Source of the DNA: Lentimicrobium sp.
Lineage (GTDB): Bacteria; Bacteroidota; Bacteroidia; Bacteroidales; Lentimicrobiaceae
DNA: 64,000 bases
Direction of reading: 5' to 3'
Assembly: GCA_019429275.1 (NCBI GenBank)
Contig: JAHYJC010000019.1
Location: 6,081 to 70,080 of the forward strand
The notes below the pieces were generated by a model. That model had not been told where the DNA came from. It did not search any database and worked only from the letters and a program-made list of their open reading frames with translations. Shown here in pieces: positions 52,285 to 63,064 of this stretch; position 1 is the first letter of the stretch, and each line of letters starts with the position of its first letter. Both the position numbers and the translations under genes were made by a program.

Positions 52285-52352
52285 ATGTGTGAATGATGTA
52301 ACTTATGGTAATATTTATGTAACACTCTCCGGATGCATATATTTTATCTTTG
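52285..52352 (+). promoter_or_regulatory. regulon site B: tandem box promoter
   Basis: ATGTGT-GAATGATGTAA(52291)-N10-TATTTATGTAA(52312)-N22-TATCTTTG(52345). Confidence 0.85.
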
Positions 52353-52676: not shown

Positions 52677-52871
52677 ATGAATATTAAAAGAATTTTCGGG
52701 TCTATACTTACCATTCTTGGTATTGTTGGCCTTATTTATGCAGCCGTTTTATTTGCAGGCAATTCAGGGGGCACATCAGGGGTTAAATCCCTGATAATTT
52801 ATGCCGTACTTGGCCTGATATTCTTTATTTCCGGAATCGGACTTATCCGCTCTACCAAAGATGAATCATAG
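52677..52871 (+). CDS. small two-TM membrane protein (64 aa)
   Basis: KRIFGSILTILGIVGLIY...LGLIFFISGIGLIRSTKDE; A-rich translation initiation region. Confidence 0.78.
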   Translation: MNIKRIFGSILTILGIVGLIYAAVLFAGNSGGTSGVKSLIIYAVLGLIFFISGIGLIRSTKDES

Positions 52872-52898: not shown

Positions 52899-52938
52899 AA
52901 GTTGCATCAAGCCACATTTACCCGGTTCGATGCAACTT
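52899..52938. terminator. stem-loop between convergent genes
   Basis: AAGTTGCATC / GATGCAACTT 10-bp stem with a 20-nt loop, T run on the plus side. Confidence 0.5.
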
Positions 52939-52993: not shown

Positions 52994-53995
52994 TCATAAG
53001 GTAATGGAATCATTCAGATTCCCCGGTTTTGGTATTTCCGGAATTTTCTGCGGTTCAATTTCAATCTTCGCTTTTACAATTTGCACTGCCCAGGCATTGG
53101 GCACTATTTTCTTGCCGTGGGTGATGGCATATACCTTGGTAAATTCAGCCCCGAAATAAAGAATAATGGCTGAATAGTAAACCCATACAAGAATCAGGAT
53201 TATTGAGCCGGTGGCACCGTACCACGAAGCAATAACGGAACGGCTGAGATAAGCGCCTATGCCAAACTTACCTATCATAAAAAGAAAGGTTGTGAAGGAT
53301 GCACCTATCAGGCAATCTTTCAATACAACCTTACCATCGGGCAGGGTTTTGAAAATGACCGTAAACAGCAGGGTTATGATGATAAACACAATCAGAATAT
53401 TCAGGAAATAAAATAAATATAACGTGTCTTTCGGAAAAAATTCTGCAAGCTGTTTGCTCAGCACATCCATCAGTGAGTTCACAATTAAACCTACCAACAA
53501 CAAAAATCCCACAGAACCGATCATTGAGAAAGACATCAGGCGGTTTTTCAGAAATTTAACGATTCCACGCTTTGGCTTTGCCTTGAGACCCCATATGTAA
53601 TTGATTGAATCCTGGATTTCGGCAAAAACTCCTGAAGCTCCGACCAGTAAAAATCCCACACCCAGCACAGTTGCAAAAGTGCTGCTGTGCGACAATTTTA
53701 CATTCTTTATAATGTCCTGTATCTGAATTGCGGCATTGCTGCCAACCAGCCCGTTTATCTGGCCAAAAATTTCGCCGCGCACAGCCTCTTCTCCAAAAAA
53801 GAATCCACTCAGGCTAATGATGATGATGAGCAGCGGCGGCAGCGAAAAAATGGTGTAATAGGAAAGGGCTGCACCCAGTTTCATTCCATTGTCGTAAATA
53901 AATTCATTAAATGTCTCCTTGAGCAGATACCAGATTTTACCAAGTGATTTTTTGAATTTTTCAATTGACGGTATGGAAATTTGCATAAGTTTCAT
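52994..53995 (-). CDS. YihY/virulence factor BrkB family membrane protein
   Basis: GAALSYYTIFSLPPLL, GASGVFAEIQDSINYIW, FKTLPD, YGATGSIILILVWVYYSAIILYFGAE. Confidence 0.93.
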   Translation of the reverse strand: MKLMQISIPSIEKFKKSLGKIWYLLKETFNEFIYDNGMKLGAALSYYTIFSLPPLLIIIISLSGFFFGEEAVRGEIFGQINGLVGSNAAIQIQDIIKNVKLSHSSTFATVLGVGFLLVGASGVFAEIQDSINYIWGLKAKPKRGIVKFLKNRLMSFSMIGSVGFLLLVGLIVNSLMDVLSKQLAEFFPKDTLYLFYFLNILIVFIIITLLFTVIFKTLPDGKVVLKDCLIGASFTTFLFMIGKFGIGAYLSRSVIASWYGATGSIILILVWVYYSAIILYFGAEFTKVYAITHGKKIVPNAWAVQIVKAKIEIEPQKIPEIPKPGNLNDSITL

Positions 53996-53997
53996 GG

Positions 53998-55830
53998 TTA
54001 CTGAAATAAGGTGGTTGTGGGTTTGCCGATTTCAAAATCCCTGATATTAAAATCTTCTGTTTCATAGGAGTTGAATTTAATGATATTGTTCCCTTTGCCC
54101 GGGATAACAGGATAATAAGAAATGGATACCTGAAAAGTGTTGATTATCAAGTTTATATTTTTTATGAGCACACCCAGCCCGAATTGAGAATAAATACGGC
54201 TGCCTGAAAAACCTGTTTCAGTATCGCCCAGCACACCCAAAGAGCAGATAAAGTAGGGACCAAAGTAGAAGCCAATGAAATTCCAGGGGCTGTATGCCTG
54301 CGTTTGCAATGTCAGCAACAACCTGCTGTTGCCCGACAACACCTGACTGCTGAAGCCGGGCAGGCCCACATTATTATTCAGCGTAAGACTGTCGGTAGCA
54401 TAACGGTTCAGCCCAACGGTAAGTTGAGGCTTCACAAATTGCCGGAATTTCCATTTTCCAACCTCCTTCAGGCCGGTGAAGTAAATAAAGCCTGCCGAAA
54501 AGATTCCCTGTTCAATTTTTGAATTGTGAATAAAAGTGCCGAAATCAAAGTTTGCACTCAGGTAACCAAATGAGAAATAATTGCCAAAAGAAGCCTGTGC
54601 AGCAGTGTAGAACCGGCCCGTACTGTTCCGTTTCTGGTAACCACCTGTCAGGCTGTAAACATTCCCAACAGGTACATCTTCGGTAAGCCCAAATTTAAAC
54701 ACATATTTATCCTGAAAATATTTTCTTCTTGAAACGCCAATACTGGCCAGGTAAAAATCTTCATCGTGGTATAAATACTCCGGATCCGCCGATTCTTCAG
54801 GCTTTTCGGGATAGCGAATACGCGTGTAGCGGATGGCAGTAATGAAATTTGAGGTACGGCTGTTCTCCGAATTTCCTTTGAATAACTGTATGGCGCTGCC
54901 TGCCCAGTAATCCTGGGCATTAAATTTATACCGCTCAACACGAACCAGTGTATCATTAAATCGCTGAAAGATTTTCTGAGCCTGCTGTGAAATATTTACA
55001 CCTGCTGCCCACTTTGCATAGGGTGAGAAAAACGGACGGTCAATGTCAAAACTCTTTCTGAAATTACCGAACTCATCAGTGCCATAGTACAATTTTGAAC
55101 TTATAAAACTATTCATGATGTTGGGCACAGAATAGCTTGTTTTAAAATCATGTCCACCGGTTGAGAGATGCCGCGTCAATCCATTCCTAAACTCATGTCC
55201 CAGGCCTGCGAAATTTTTTTCAGTAATTTTAATTCCAACACGGGTATTTGTTACATCAAATTCAGGAATGATACTCCATGTATCCAGTTCCCTGATAAAA
55301 ATATCTACAGAATCGGAATTTTCAGATGTGGCTTTGATAAAAAAAGCTACATCGGTTACATAACCCCTGCTGCGCACCAGCCGTTCCGATTCTTTAACCA
55401 GCAATGAATCAAATGCCTGGTTTTTACGAAAAAGCAAAAGATTGCGGATGGTGGCCGGTTGCGTTTTAATGTGCAGTTTGTTGCCGGCCCTTGAAGTAAA
55501 GCTGGGATAAGATTTAATGGTGTCGGCAATTGAATTTCCGAAAGGATCGAGTGTTTCGATGTGAATTTGCCTGATGATTTTACCCTCAAACGTATCGTAA
55601 GGTTTTTGTACCGGGACTATATGTGGTTTCTTATTTACATCATCTGCCACGGGTTTAAAGAACAGCCGGTACATGAACCTTGTAAACCTGCTGCGCTCTG
55701 CATAATCTTCAATATTCCCGTAAAGAAGCGTAGAATCTTTTTTTGCAGGTGTTTGCTGGGCATAGGTATAATCACTCGTTAGAATTTGAGCAAAACACAG
55801 CATAAAAGTTATTTTGAACCACATCTGCAT
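53998..55830 (-). CDS. Omp85/TamA-like outer-membrane protein (POTRA + beta-barrel)
   Basis: Signal peptide; POTRA-like TIRNLLLF..FDSLLVKESERLVR..DVAF..VDIFIRELDTWS; amphipathic strands; ends LFQ. Confidence 0.7.
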   Translation of the reverse strand: MQMWFKITFMLCFAQILTSDYTYAQQTPAKKDSTLLYGNIEDYAERSRFTRFMYRLFFKPVADDVNKKPHIVPVQKPYDTFEGKIIRQIHIETLDPFGNSIADTIKSYPSFTSRAGNKLHIKTQPATIRNLLLFRKNQAFDSLLVKESERLVRSRGYVTDVAFFIKATSENSDSVDIFIRELDTWSIIPEFDVTNTRVGIKITEKNFAGLGHEFRNGLTRHLSTGGHDFKTSYSVPNIMNSFISSKLYYGTDEFGNFRKSFDIDRPFFSPYAKWAAGVNISQQAQKIFQRFNDTLVRVERYKFNAQDYWAGSAIQLFKGNSENSRTSNFITAIRYTRIRYPEKPEESADPEYLYHDEDFYLASIGVSRRKYFQDKYVFKFGLTEDVPVGNVYSLTGGYQKRNSTGRFYTAAQASFGNYFSFGYLSANFDFGTFIHNSKIEQGIFSAGFIYFTGLKEVGKWKFRQFVKPQLTVGLNRYATDSLTLNNNVGLPGFSSQVLSGNSRLLLTLQTQAYSPWNFIGFYFGPYFICSLGVLGDTETGFSGSRIYSQFGLGVLIKNINLIINTFQVSISYYPVIPGKGNNIIKFNSYETEDFNIRDFEIGKPTTTLFQ

Positions 55831-55873
55831 TTGTCAAAATTAAAAATTTTAAACCTGACATTTTCAGGAATGG

Positions 55874-56836
55874 CTATTTCGGTTGATCCTGTTCTTTTTG
55901 TTCGGCGGCTTCCTGTTCTGCTGCCTCAATCATTTTTAATTCATCGGCTGCAGCTTTCTTTTTGAACATTCCCTTCAACAATAAACTATGCTGGAAAGCT
56001 TCAATGGTTGAATTTAATCCTTCGGTAGTTTTATTGAGATTATAAATAGTGCTGTTTATGTTTCCGGCTATGATGGTATCATAAATCAATCTGCCAAGGG
56101 TGCCTTTGCCTTCATTAATTTCGATCACACTTCTCTCAACTTGCTTTGTAATGCCTTCTGAATTATCTGCAGTAACTCTCAGACTTGCTAAAATATCGGT
56201 TAAATTTTGCCTCGATGCCTCCATGGTTTCATTCAATCGGGATGAACTTTCTTTAAAGTTCTGAATGGTCTGGTTAATATCTTCAGCAATGGTTGAATCC
56301 TGAATTAACCTTCCAAGTGTTCCTTTGCCTGAGTTTACATTTGTCATCACTTCGGCAAGTTCCTTTGTTATTACTTCAACACTACCTGCGGTTACCTGAA
56401 GACTGGCAATAATGGCATCCGTTTCAACAGGTTCGGTCGAATCAAGGTGTTGGCCATCCTTTGCCAAAGGAGCATCTGTAGTTCCCTGTGTAATTATCAA
56501 GAGCCGGTCGCCTATCAGCCCTTCTGAACCTATGGCCACTTTACTGTCTGATTTAATAAATTGCTGAACCTCTTTTCGAACCAGCATATCAACCCTTACC
56601 GTTGAGTCGTTGATGATTGAAATTACATCAACTGTCCCTACATTAATGCCTGAGAAACGGATATTGTTCCCCACCTGCAATCCGCTTACATTGTAAAAAT
56701 TTGTAGTAAGTTTAAAAACAGGGTTGAACAGATTTTTTTGCTTGCCGATGATAAATATGGCCATCATAAAAAGCGCCAGCCCTCCGACAACAAAAAGACC
56801 TAAGCGGACTTTAAATTTTTGTGTGTGCGTATCCAT
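55874..56836 (-). CDS. mlaD: MlaD/MCE family protein with an extended helical region
   Basis: KVRLGLFV TM, NVSGLQVGNNIRFSGINVGTV, IGSEGLIGD; duplicated GKGTLGRLI. Confidence 0.92.
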   Translation of the reverse strand: MDTHTQKFKVRLGLFVVGGLALFMMAIFIIGKQKNLFNPVFKLTTNFYNVSGLQVGNNIRFSGINVGTVDVISIINDSTVRVDMLVRKEVQQFIKSDSKVAIGSEGLIGDRLLIITQGTTDAPLAKDGQHLDSTEPVETDAIIASLQVTAGSVEVITKELAEVMTNVNSGKGTLGRLIQDSTIAEDINQTIQNFKESSSRLNETMEASRQNLTDILASLRVTADNSEGITKQVERSVIEINEGKGTLGRLIYDTIIAGNINSTIYNLNKTTEGLNSTIEAFQHSLLLKGMFKKKAAADELKMIEAAEQEAAEQKEQDQPK

Positions 56837-56894
56837 TTTGTTATTGTTTTACACTAATTCGTATTTCAGTTTCATTGCCGGGATGTTCCGGAAT

Positions 56895-57677
56895 TTATAA
56901 AAAGAAGGCCTGAATGGCAGGATCATCCGATTTTTCAAAATCCTCAACAGTTCCTTCTTTATATACGGACCCTGAATCGAGCATAATGATTCGGTTTGCT
57001 GTTTTCAGTGCGCATTTAATATCATGTGTAATGATGATGGATGAGGTTTTATACTTCTCCTGAACATCATTGATGAGTTCGCTTATTTCGTTGGAAGTAA
57101 CCGGGTCGAGTCCGGTTGTTGGCTCATCGTAAAGCATAACCAGAGGGTCCACAACAATAGTACGGGCCAGACTAATACGCTTGCGCATGCCACCCGATAG
57201 TTCGGAGGGCATTTTGTTCTGCGCATCGGGCAAACCCACATTTTCAAGCACCTCATTTATTTTGTTATCCCTCTCGTTTTTCGAGAGATTCTTTTTCAGT
57301 CTGACTAACGGAAATTCCAGATTCTGTTTCACGGTCATTGAGTCGTACAAAGCACCGCTCTGAAAAAGGAAACCGACCTTCTGTCTGAGTTCGCTCATTT
57401 CTTTTCTGCTCAGCGTTTTCACATTTTTCCCAAATACGTCAATGGTGCCGCCTTCAAAATTCAATAAGCCAACAATGCACTTTATCAGCACCGATTTACC
57501 GGTACCTGATTTGCCCAGCACAACCAGGTTTTCGCCATTGTAAAGGTTTAATGAAGCATCTTCTAAAACCTTTATTTTACCGAATGACTTTTGCAGATTG
57601 TTTATCCTGATAACCGGTTCTGCTACCTTTTCAGCAGATTGAATCTCATTTGGAGCGAATTTAAGTTCAGTGTTCAT
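56895..57677 (-). CDS. mlaF: MlaF-type ABC ATPase
   Basis: GKSGTGKS, FLFQSGALYDSMTV, LSGGMRKR, LYDEPTTGLDP, ITHD. Confidence 0.93.
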   Translation of the reverse strand: MNTELKFAPNEIQSAEKVAEPVIRINNLQKSFGKIKVLEDASLNLYNGENLVVLGKSGTGKSVLIKCIVGLLNFEGGTIDVFGKNVKTLSRKEMSELRQKVGFLFQSGALYDSMTVKQNLEFPLVRLKKNLSKNERDNKINEVLENVGLPDAQNKMPSELSGGMRKRISLARTIVVDPLVMLYDEPTTGLDPVTSNEISELINDVQEKYKTSSIIITHDIKCALKTANRIIMLDSGSVYKEGTVEDFEKSDDPAIQAFFL

Positions 57678-58540
57678 AATACCAGCATATCAGTAATTTG
57701 TACGGCAATCATATCCACCACCAGCACCAGAAGCGATGCCAGCACAACCGCAGAATTTGCAGCCACCCCAACACTTTCGGTTCCACGTCCGGCATGATAA
57801 CCTTTGTAGGTTCCCACAAAGCCAATAACTGCTCCAAAGAAAAAGGTTTTAATTAGTGCCGGAAAAAAATCCATAAAATCTACTACTTTGAATGCCTGTG
57901 CAAAAAAGAGCGTAAGTGGTACATCCCCTTTGATATTTGCCCCTGCCCAACTTGCCAGAATACCAAAAGCATCGGCATACAAAACAAGCAACGGTATCAT
58001 AAGTGTTGCCGCCAGCACCCTGGTTACTACCAGAAATCTTATTGGATTTGTTGAAGACACTTCCATGGCTTCAATCTGCTCGGTCACTTTCATGGAGCCC
58101 AGTTCGGCACCCATGCCCGATCCGATTTTTCCGGCGCAGATAAGGGCGGTAATTACCGGCCCCATTTCCCTGATAAGCGATACAGCAACCATTCCTGGCA
58201 GCATGGATACTGCTCCGAAATCAACCAGCACCGGGCGCGATTGTATGGTGAGCACCAGCCCCATAATGGCTCCGGTAACTGTTATGAGCGGTAAAGTTTT
58301 GTATCCGATTTGAAAACACTGGCGAAAGAATTCCTTAAATTCAAAATCGCGCGAGAATAATTCTCTGGTAACCTGCGATATAAACATAAATACATCCGCA
58401 ACATCGGTCAGAAAGTTGCCGGCTGCCTCGGTTTTTGAAAGGGTGTTTTCGCTAAGTTTGCTTATAGAACGCACTGTTACGTCCCGGAGTTTCGGAATAA
58501 CCTTGACAACCGGGATAAACTTTTTCGTATTTATTTTCAT
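57674..58540 (-). CDS. mlaE: MlaE family ABC permease
   Basis: IREMGPVITAL, GKIGSGMGAELGSMKVTEQIEAME, VGVAANSAVV; ATGA overlap with mlaF. Confidence 0.94.
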   Translation of the reverse strand: MKINTKKFIPVVKVIPKLRDVTVRSISKLSENTLSKTEAAGNFLTDVADVFMFISQVTRELFSRDFEFKEFFRQCFQIGYKTLPLITVTGAIMGLVLTIQSRPVLVDFGAVSMLPGMVAVSLIREMGPVITALICAGKIGSGMGAELGSMKVTEQIEAMEVSSTNPIRFLVVTRVLAATLMIPLLVLYADAFGILASWAGANIKGDVPLTLFFAQAFKVVDFMDFFPALIKTFFFGAVIGFVGTYKGYHAGRGTESVGVAANSAVVLASLLVLVVDMIAVQITDMLVL

Positions 58541-58730: not shown

Positions 58731-58798
58731 CAAATTTACCGGCCATTTGCGGCGAATGCATTACATAACTATTTCTATTAGTTACATGATTCACACAT
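58731..58798 (-). promoter_or_regulatory. regulon site C: tandem box promoter of the mla operon
   Basis: Minus strand ATGTGT-GAATCATGTAA(58792)-N10-TAGTTATGTAA(58771)-N22-TAAATTTG(58738). Confidence 0.85.
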
Positions 58799-58859: not shown

Positions 58860-58927
58860 ATGTGGGAATCATGTAACTCTGTTGCAGAATTGTGTAACGC
58901 TATTCGGTAGCCTTTAACAGACCTTTG
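58860..58927 (+). promoter_or_regulatory. regulon site D: tandem box promoter of the ytxH operon
   Basis: ATGTGG-GAATCATGTAA(58866)-N10-GAATTGTGTAA(58887)-N22-GACCTTTG(58920). Confidence 0.85.
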
Positions 58928-62996: not shown

Positions 62997-63064
62997 AAGT
63001 GGGAATTATGTAAAATTTCTGAAAAGTTGTGTAACAGAACCTTTCGTAAAGCTTATCTACTTTG
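62997..63064 (+). promoter_or_regulatory. regulon site F: tandem box promoter of the regulator operon
   Basis: AAGTGG-GAATTATGTAA(63003)-N10-AAGTTGTGTAA(63024)-N22-CTACTTTG(63057). Confidence 0.82.

Follow-up and report, generated by a model that had tools for sequence, protein, structure and literature searches.

The routes by which phospholipids travel between the inner and outer membranes of Gram-negative bacteria are still a matter of debate, and the outer-membrane end of Mla-type systems outside the Proteobacteria represents a gap in the picture. In the PqiABC and LetAB systems of Escherichia coli and in the TGD system of chloroplasts, the periplasm is bridged by MCE rings that are either stacked or equipped with helical needles, and contact with the outer membrane is needed. 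PqiB and LetB contain three or seven MCE domains and make this contact via the lipoprotein PqiC or directly, and in chloroplasts the MlaEFD-like engine TGD1-3 is paired with an outer-envelope barrel, TGD4, which is not of the Omp85/POTRA type. According to the survey of Grasekamp et al. (2023; PMC10665443), the Bacteroidota and their relatives have MlaEFD without MlaA, MlaC, or an MlaD barrel, the MlaD of the FCB group never carries a barrel of its own, and MlaA and MlaC are largely proteobacterial, which leaves the outer-membrane partner of these transporters unaccounted for. Here, we describe an operon found in a 64,000-nucleotide stretch of the genome of a Lentimicrobium sp. of the Bacteroidota (assembly GCA_019429275.1, contig JAHYJC010000019.1, positions 6,081 to 70,080; the whole stretch is referred to as the window), in which mlaE, an mlaF-like gene, and mlaD are followed by a gene for a 610-residue predicted outer-membrane barrel protein and by yihY. 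We see about an even chance that the locus encodes an accessory MCE transporter, independent of MlaC and MlaA, with an outer-membrane component of the Omp85 fold encoded in its own operon.

The core of the Mla pathway is present in this single operon (Table 1), namely, an MlaE permease (PF02405), an MlaF ATPase (PF00005), and an MlaD protein with a transmembrane (TM) helix and a single MCE domain (PF02470). In NCBIfam, none of the three reaches the equivalog cut-off of its family, the MlaF model PRK11831 included, so that they have to be regarded as family members and not as equivalogs. The genome, which comprises 4.19 Mb and is 96.5% complete, has no match to PF04333 (MlaA) or to PF05494 (MlaC) anywhere, as is also the case for a Bacteroides control genome. 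An earlier first-pass annotation of the DNA, which had described the operon as lacking MlaB, MlaC, and MlaA, is thereby borne out for MlaC and MlaA, and for the genome as a whole; no STAS (MlaB-like), MlaC, or MlaA match was found in the five operon proteins, MlaB having been checked in the operon only, with no genome-wide STAS search made. A second MlaE-MlaF pair is located on another contig (C31), and an orphan MCE protein is encoded beside an amidase gene and an LptD-like (LptD_2) gene on a further one (C16); the operon is, therefore, considered a system additional to the set commonly found in Bacteroidota. The genome also contains a TamB-TamL pair (contig C81), further AsmA-like genes, and five ordinary Omp85 paralogs, and no AsmA-like gene adjoins the barrel gene in the window.

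The 610-residue protein has no Pfam match and no NCBIfam match, and its homologs, which number in the thousands at ~60% identity, are all annotated as hypothetical and lack Pfam domains. Its sequence is rich in β-strands and begins with a signal peptide, the hydrophobic N-terminus MQMWFKITFMLCFAQILTSDYTYAQ being followed by Q, with cleavage near YAQ/Q. The AlphaFold2 (AF2) model, built on 30 homologs, has a predicted local distance difference test (pLDDT) score of 70 and a predicted template modelling (pTM) score of 0.66, and it comprises a conserved but badly modelled N-terminal stretch of ~50 residues, a POTRA-like β-α-α-β-β unit at residues ~85-183 (strand 85-94, helices 111-131 and 142-153, strands 158-167 and 174-183), a large barrel at residues ~187-587, which is nearly all β-strand and opens with an Omp85-like NFxGxGH motif, and a short disordered tail. 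When this model was compared with the PDB by Foldseek, the best 50 matches were all to BamA, TamA, or Toc75, with E values of 4.5e-13 to 3.6e-10 and a probability of 1.0. Pfam POTRA matches, weak and below threshold (best E 0.02), occur at the expected position in 11 of the 30 homologs, and in profile-profile alignment by hhalign residues 98-207 correspond to the final POTRA and the first barrel strand in the BamA of the same genome, the NFxGxG motif included (E 8e-4). With a more diverse family profile, the alignment runs colinearly over residues 112-589 and the C-terminal 480 residues of proteins of the BamA/TamL type (E 3.2e-4, probability 39%). The family profile, run over a sample of 301 evenly sampled genomes of the phylum, also gave weak matches (1e-6 to 1e-11) to the POTRA/first-strand region of a few long open reading frames (ORFs); two of these were checked, and matches to PF01103 and POTRA identify both as Omp85 proteins. 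From the predicted structure and the profile comparisons, we conclude that the 610-residue protein is of the Omp85 fold, with one POTRA, and too divergent for PF01103, which lends support to the Omp85/TamA-like identity that the first-pass annotation had assigned to the fourth gene.

Omp85 barrels have sixteen strands and carry a (V/I)RG(F/Y) motif in loop 6 and an (F/G)xDxG motif in strand 13. In the window protein, GLxGF (489-493) and GFxFxP (520-525) are found near these positions, without the arginine and the aspartate, the hhalign alignment being too weak for registers, and DSSP assigns ~20 strand segments after the POTRA, which may include loop hairpins as well as barrel strands. The family is a large one: when 1.84 billion cluster representatives were searched with its profile, 3008 clusters (50% identity) matched at E <= 1e-3, and 1008 of them did so at E <= 1e-30. 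Searches of PDB chains with the sequence and with the family profile gave matches to designed Kelch proteins only, which were judged spurious. A separate observation from another Bacteroidota genome is a 909-residue patatin-POTRA-Omp85 (PlpD-like) protein (L126:850-3579), which is weakly matched by the profile of the barrel family.

The link between this protein and the transporter comes from the conservation of gene order. One genome per GTDB species was used for the scan of relatives, and the 80 closest of 407 were kept; among these, mlaD is located directly 5′ of the barrel gene and co-oriented with it in 71 of the 75 loci with enough flank, and the gap between the two has a median of 69 bp and narrows to 0-6 bp in several loci. 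The linked loci belong to the Prolixibacteraceae (Mariniphaga, Draconibacterium, Gaoshiqia), the Lentimicrobiaceae, and many unclassified Bacteroidales, and three to five changes are enough to explain the linked state (76 linked, 24 unlinked) on a tree built from 102 barrel proteins; the linkage thus marks essentially one large clade. A junction so tight and clade-wide speaks for a common pathway of the barrel and MlaEFD in the linked clade. As to the five-gene order proposed in the first-pass annotation, its mlaE-mlaF-mlaD-barrel portion is strongly conserved (59 of the 63 loci with enough flank), but yihY follows the barrel gene in only 35 of 69. YihY, for which the role of an inner-membrane partner had been suggested, is thus part of the neighborhood in about half of the relatives, and yihY also follows mlaD directly where the barrel gene is absent (L125); a partnership with MlaE is left unsupported.

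The other regulon units near the operon vary, whereas the mlaD-barrel junction is constant. Recurrent neighbors are a second, tandem mlaEFD set, TamB with TamL, an OmpA-like protein, L,D-transpeptidases, and YtxH/AI-2E stress genes. In several Prolixibacteraceae, genes for a TamB (up to 1661 residues, PF04357) and a TamL-like Omp85 protein (PF01103 and POTRA) adjoin the mlaEFD-barrel operon, being located 3′ of the barrel gene in L042, L051, L055, L058, and L063 and nearby on the opposite strand in L054, L090, and L095. A DUF748 gene (793-818 codons) comes directly after the barrel gene in L002 and L033. It may be noted separately that the Prolixibacteraceae arrangement of TamB-TamL with mlaEFD-barrel recalls the mlaEFD-tolC-tamB cluster of Veillonella, and that the second, paralogous mlaE-mlaF-mlaD set (264/258/325 residues) lies in tandem directly 5′ of the barrel-linked set in many relatives (L030, L035, L036, L038, L049, L052, L054, L062, L069, L082, L086, L088, L090, L095, and L101).

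The mlaD product consists of an N-terminal TM helix, the single MCE domain, and an all-helical extension of ~175 residues, which in the window protein is made of two 73-residue repeats with a GKGTLGRLI motif; at the DNA level, the repeat is found at positions 56092 and 56311, a spacing of 219 nt. Relatives of this MlaD are either ~240 or ~320 residues long, and the difference corresponds in the alignment to exactly one 73-residue repeat. Such variation by whole repeats would be as expected for a tube that reaches into the periplasm, and it suggests that the periplasmic reach of MlaD may be tuned by repeat number. In the AF2 model of monomeric MlaD, residues 139-316 are helical but of low pLDDT, and the model therefore supports no geometry, the score being 33-39 across the extension. 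The C-terminus reads as a hydrophobic HSLLLKGMF segment (consensus NFLFRGYF) followed by a K/E-rich tail, and no C-terminal β-domain was seen either in this reading or in the AF2 model, in accordance with what PMC10665443 says of the FCB group. Since NFLFRGYFKKK with a charged tail is shared by mlaEFD operons of the Bacteroidota irrespective of a barrel gene, the motif is not barrel-specific.

In the model that we propose, the operon, as part of a stress/envelope regulon, would encode an accessory lipid transporter of the MCE type. Its inner-membrane ABC engine would consist of MlaE and MlaF, and MlaD, with its one TM anchor, would form the usual MCE hexamer, the 175-residue helices of which would extend into the periplasm as a tube. 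The product of the fourth gene would be the outer-membrane component of the same pathway, in which the periplasmic parts of the barrel protein (the POTRA and the N-terminal extension) would meet the distal end of the MlaD tube and the Omp85 barrel would provide the outer-membrane anchor and the lipid entry or exit site. Barrels of the Omp85 fold have a weak lateral seam and thin the membrane locally. In Veillonella, the corresponding role belongs to the C-terminal barrel of the long MlaD, and for TamB it belongs to TamA/TamL. YihY would be a co-transcribed inner-membrane protein in a looser association with the module. The physical contact between MlaD and the barrel protein, the direction of transport, the substrate, and any role of YihY are what we infer here. 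In its most specific form, the model describes a first MCE-Omp85 trans-envelope machine, in which the MlaD hexamer would dock on the POTRA and the N-terminal extension and the lateral seam would act as a portal for phospholipids; this form is put forward tentatively and with rather less than even confidence.

It has to be noted that a number of observations weigh against an obligate partnership of the barrel protein with MlaEFD. The barrel family, with its 3008 clusters, is far broader than the mla linkage: it is present in 57 of the 301 phylum genomes (E <= 1e-5) and strong in 47 of them, and among 20 more distant barrel homologs only one has mla genes nearby, which are convergent there. In Flavobacterium (assigned from protein names), the barrel gene comes after DUF2520, HAD, UbiA, Maf, MscS, and AI-2E genes and is unlinked to mla; its neighbors there, as in other lineages, are unrelated housekeeping genes. 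Very similar mlaEFD sets (MlaD E ~1e-100 against that of the window) occur in genomes without a match to the barrel profile (G208, G164, G200, and G087), and one of these sets reads DUF748-mlaE-mlaF-mlaD-yihY (L125; G087). Neither the C-terminal MlaD motif nor the N-terminal extension of the barrel protein, when examined for a docking element specific to linked pairs, yielded one, the extension being conserved in the unlinked Flavobacterium homologs too. AsmA, DUF748, and TamB genes are frequent neighbors, which offers an alternative partner for the barrel. As far as the fold itself is concerned, the Foldseek TM-scores are modest (0.23-0.41), and PF01103 is unmatched by the 610-residue protein or by any of its 30 homologs at E values up to 1. 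Co-occurrence statistics cannot decide on the partnership, because MlaE is almost universal, being found in 28 of the 29 barrel-containing genomes tested; MlaD-type matches occur in 233 of the 301 phylum genomes.

Some further loci of the phylum may be described in this context. In four loci from another class (L121 in G208, L122 in G164, L123 in G200, and L124 in G023), MlaE matches with E ~1e-122 to 1e-129, a similarity nearly that of close relatives, and there is no barrel gene; sequence comparison suggests that the mlaEFD module may have spread horizontally. In the Flavobacterium loci L112, L114, L115, and L116, an AsmA-family gene of 932-940 codons is located 3′ of mlaEFD, and in L113 and L117, which are from other species, genes for a canonical Omp85 protein (~760 residues) and for a protein of ~900 residues are located 5′ of it. 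Even with the divergent barrel encoded elsewhere, mlaEFD thus has recurrent neighbors of the Omp85 or AsmA-like type.

Of the alternatives to the proposed model, the main one is that the barrel protein is a general envelope-biogenesis Omp85 paralog, either a partner of AsmA, DUF748, or TamB proteins or an insertase of particular outer-membrane proteins, the gene of which is, in one clade, merely co-located with mlaEFD in a co-regulated cluster for lipid homeostasis, without contact of its product with MlaD. The only established role of Omp85 proteins in lipid-transport machines is that of TamA/TamL with TamB, and AsmA-family genes recur around the loci described above (DUF748 in L002/L033 and L125, TamB-TamL in the Prolixibacteraceae, and the AsmA-like gene after mlaD in Flavobacterium), as does an Omp85 gene before mlaE in some loci of the Flavobacterium scan; it is likewise in keeping with a general paralog that the barrel family is unlinked to mla in most of the lineages that have it and that mlaEFD occurs without it. 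However, no AsmA-like gene adjoins the barrel gene in the genome under study or in most of the 80 relatives. Where a TamB is adjacent, it has its own TamL, and a separate TamB-TamL pair exists in the Lentimicrobium genome, so that the divergent barrel is not needed as a TamB partner. Furthermore, the barrel gene comes immediately after mlaD in 95% of the close relatives, which is tighter than loose clustering predicts. We regard a general paralog as unlikely, although it has to be taken seriously. The related question of whether the 610-residue protein might be some other large outer-membrane barrel that resembles BamA by chance, as could be argued from the lack of PF01103 and PDB sequence matches, from TM-scores of 0.3-0.41, and from a strand count that is not a clean sixteen, is answered by several lines of comparison: all of the 50 top Foldseek matches are Omp85-family chains, the weak POTRA matches of the homologs fall at the expected place, the alignment to BamA/TamL is colinear and includes the POTRA and the first-strand motif, and the family profile retrieves Pfam-confirmed Omp85 proteins in other genomes. 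A chance resemblance is, in our view, very improbable.

It could also be that MlaEFD is self-sufficient, the MlaD hexamer reaching or inserting into the outer membrane by its own hydrophobic C-terminal motif, as has been proposed for long MlaD proteins that lack a barrel, in which case the barrel protein and YihY would be unrelated cargo of a stress regulon. The same MlaD C-terminus is found with or without the barrel gene, tiny C-terminal barrels are seen in hexamer models of barrel-less MlaD (Grasekamp et al., PMC10665443), and a multi-unit envelope/stress regulon shares one promoter module, all of which speak for such an arrangement. Cargo of this kind would, on the other hand, hardly account for a gene order that is maintained, with gaps that are very short or absent, in dozens of species from three or more named families, nor for a junction of mlaD and the barrel gene that stays constant while the surrounding regulon units vary, and we therefore consider self-sufficiency of MlaEFD improbable.

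The layout of the operon is summarized in Table 1. Its five co-oriented genes and their spacings had been given in the first-pass annotation and were reproduced here: the stop of mlaE and the start of mlaF overlap as ATGA, and the following gaps are 58 bp between mlaF and mlaD, 43 bp between mlaD and the barrel gene, and 2 bp between the barrel gene and yihY.

Table 1. Features of the mlaEFD-barrel-yihY operon and its flanks; coordinates are positions within the 64-kb window, and the whole operon is on the minus strand
Feature	Coordinates	Strand	Description and evidence
mlaE	57674..58540	-	MlaE-family ABC permease, 288 aa; PF02405 8.3e-68, TIGR00056 1.2e-58
mlaF-like ABC ATPase	56895..57677	-	260 aa; PF00005 1.2e-32; PRK11831 152.8 bits
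mlaD	55874..56836	-	320 aa; PF02470 MCE domain 9.6e-14
Divergent Omp85-fold outer-membrane protein (predicted)	53998..55830	-	610 aa; AF2, Foldseek, hhalign
yihY/brkB-family inner-membrane protein	52994..53995	-	333 aa; PF03631 1.5e-48
Inverted repeat, just 3′ of yihY	52899..52938	-	AAGTTGCATC...GATGCAACTT; read from sequence
Promoter module (putative)	58731..58786	-	TGTAAC/TGTAAT boxes 58786-58761 and TAAATTTG -7-like box 58738-58731

The region upstream of mlaE contains tandem TGTAA(C/T) boxes, spaced 21 nt, ~220 nt 5′ of the gene and a -7-like box, TAAATTTG, ~190 nt 5′ of its ATG, which agrees with TAnnTTTG, the -7 consensus of the phylum. The block is kept 5′ of mlaE in five relatives (L027, L094, L029, L001, and L039), and the tandem pattern, TGTAA(C)-N16-TGTAA, occurs seven times in the window against 0.82 expected; the sites include 52297-52322 (+), 58761-58786 (-), 58872-58897 (+), and 63009-63034 (+), and one of the sites precedes the divergent ytxH gene. 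The module fits what had earlier been annotated as regulon site C. The block at 58731..58786 probably acts as the promoter of the mla operon, and the shared sites suggest that the operon may belong to a multi-unit regulon of envelope and stress genes with a common promoter module. The initial promoter-motif candidates, TTCGGCAAAGGAAT and GCCGCAAAT, were dropped, as they, unlike the tandem TGTAA boxes, showed no enrichment, and a scan for the sigma-70 consensus was uninformative for the host phylum.

At the other end of the operon, the identity of YihY is well supported (PF03631, 166.1 bits against a cut-off of 33.7; TIGR00765, 83.2 bits against 73.15), and the gene is present in a single copy in the genome according to tblastn. 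An E. coli paralog, YhjD, has been tied genetically to the export of a lipid A precursor; the literature on a lipid role of YihY itself yielded nothing relevant. The inverted repeat just 3′ of yihY was missed by a consensus terminator scan, which made no call there because a T run is absent; it possibly marks the end of the transcript. Just 3′ of yihY, in the region 52677-52871, the minus strand also contains a small hydrophobic ORF of ~64 codons, the product of which resembles the DUF5670-type small membrane proteins found at the same place in L001.

Full-text literature searches returned no paper pairing an Omp85-type protein with MlaEFD in the Bacteroidota, and the new element would be the combination of an MCE transporter with an outer-membrane component of the Omp85 fold that is encoded by a gene of its own. 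The conserved, operon-encoded, and Pfam-invisible Omp85-fold protein after mlaD represents a concrete candidate for the missing outer-membrane part, and it is one that is genetically testable, in the linked form in cultured Prolixibacteraceae and in the unlinked form in Flavobacterium. Should the model be correct, the functional range of Omp85 proteins would extend from protein insertion and the anchoring of TamB to MCE transporters, it would be explained how Bacteroidota lacking MlaA and MlaC connect a Mla-type pump to the outer membrane, and an unannotated Omp85-like family of ~3000 clusters would gain a role in lipid transport and not in protein insertion. Should it be wrong, a large uncharacterized Omp85-like family of the phylum, annotated as hypothetical protein, is still defined.

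Among the known systems with which the locus may be compared, the proteobacterial Mla pathway (MlaFEDB, MlaC, MlaA-OmpC/F) shares with it an operon that combines MlaE, an ATPase of the MlaF type, and an MlaD with one MCE domain. It differs in its components, MlaB being absent from the operon described here and MlaC and MlaA from the genome, in the length of MlaD (320 versus ~183 residues), and in the outer-membrane component, which is a lipoprotein in a porin trimer there and a candidate Omp85-fold barrel here. PqiB, LetB, and the TGD system span the space between two membranes, whereas the MlaD of the window has a single MCE domain with helices built of repeats and an Omp85-fold candidate partner; the analogy with TGD4 is loose, because the window barrel matches Omp85 structures. 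A divergent Omp85-family barrel in a cluster with an ABC transporter has also been found computationally in Borrelia, where the genes adjoining that for the barrel in the BBJ25 cluster (PMC13078400) encode a MacB-like ABC transporter together with a LolA-like protein, and lipidic cargo is proposed to be carried to the outer membrane. However, that transporter is of the MacB type VII and not of the MlaE/MCE type, no MCE protein is present, and the phylum is another one.

TAM (translocation and assembly module), composed of TamA in Proteobacteria or TamL in Bacteroidota and of TamB, resembles the proposed system in its architecture, since it combines a POTRA-bearing Omp85 protein with a periplasm-spanning lipid conduit anchored in the inner membrane, encoded by adjacent, co-oriented genes. 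The conduit would, in the present case, be an ABC-powered MCE hexamer in place of an AsmA-like β-taco protein, and the window barrel, a non-lipoprotein without a PF01103 match, has one POTRA as compared with the three of TAM, with a separate TamB-TamL pair being encoded in the genome. The minimal MlaEFD of Veillonella parvula and other Negativicutes (PMC10665443) also lacks MlaA, MlaB, and MlaC, its MlaD combines a TM helix with one MCE domain and long helices, and its operon is located among genes of outer-membrane lipid homeostasis, with tamB nearby; in both cases, a β-barrel forms the outer-membrane end, here as a candidate. The same study names no partner for the MlaD of the FCB group. The two systems differ in where the barrel resides: in Veillonella, a small barrel forms the C-terminal domain of MlaD itself, whereas in the MlaD of the window the helices are followed by a charged tail, and the candidate barrel is a protein in its own right, of 610 residues, predicted to be of the Omp85 fold and to carry a POTRA.

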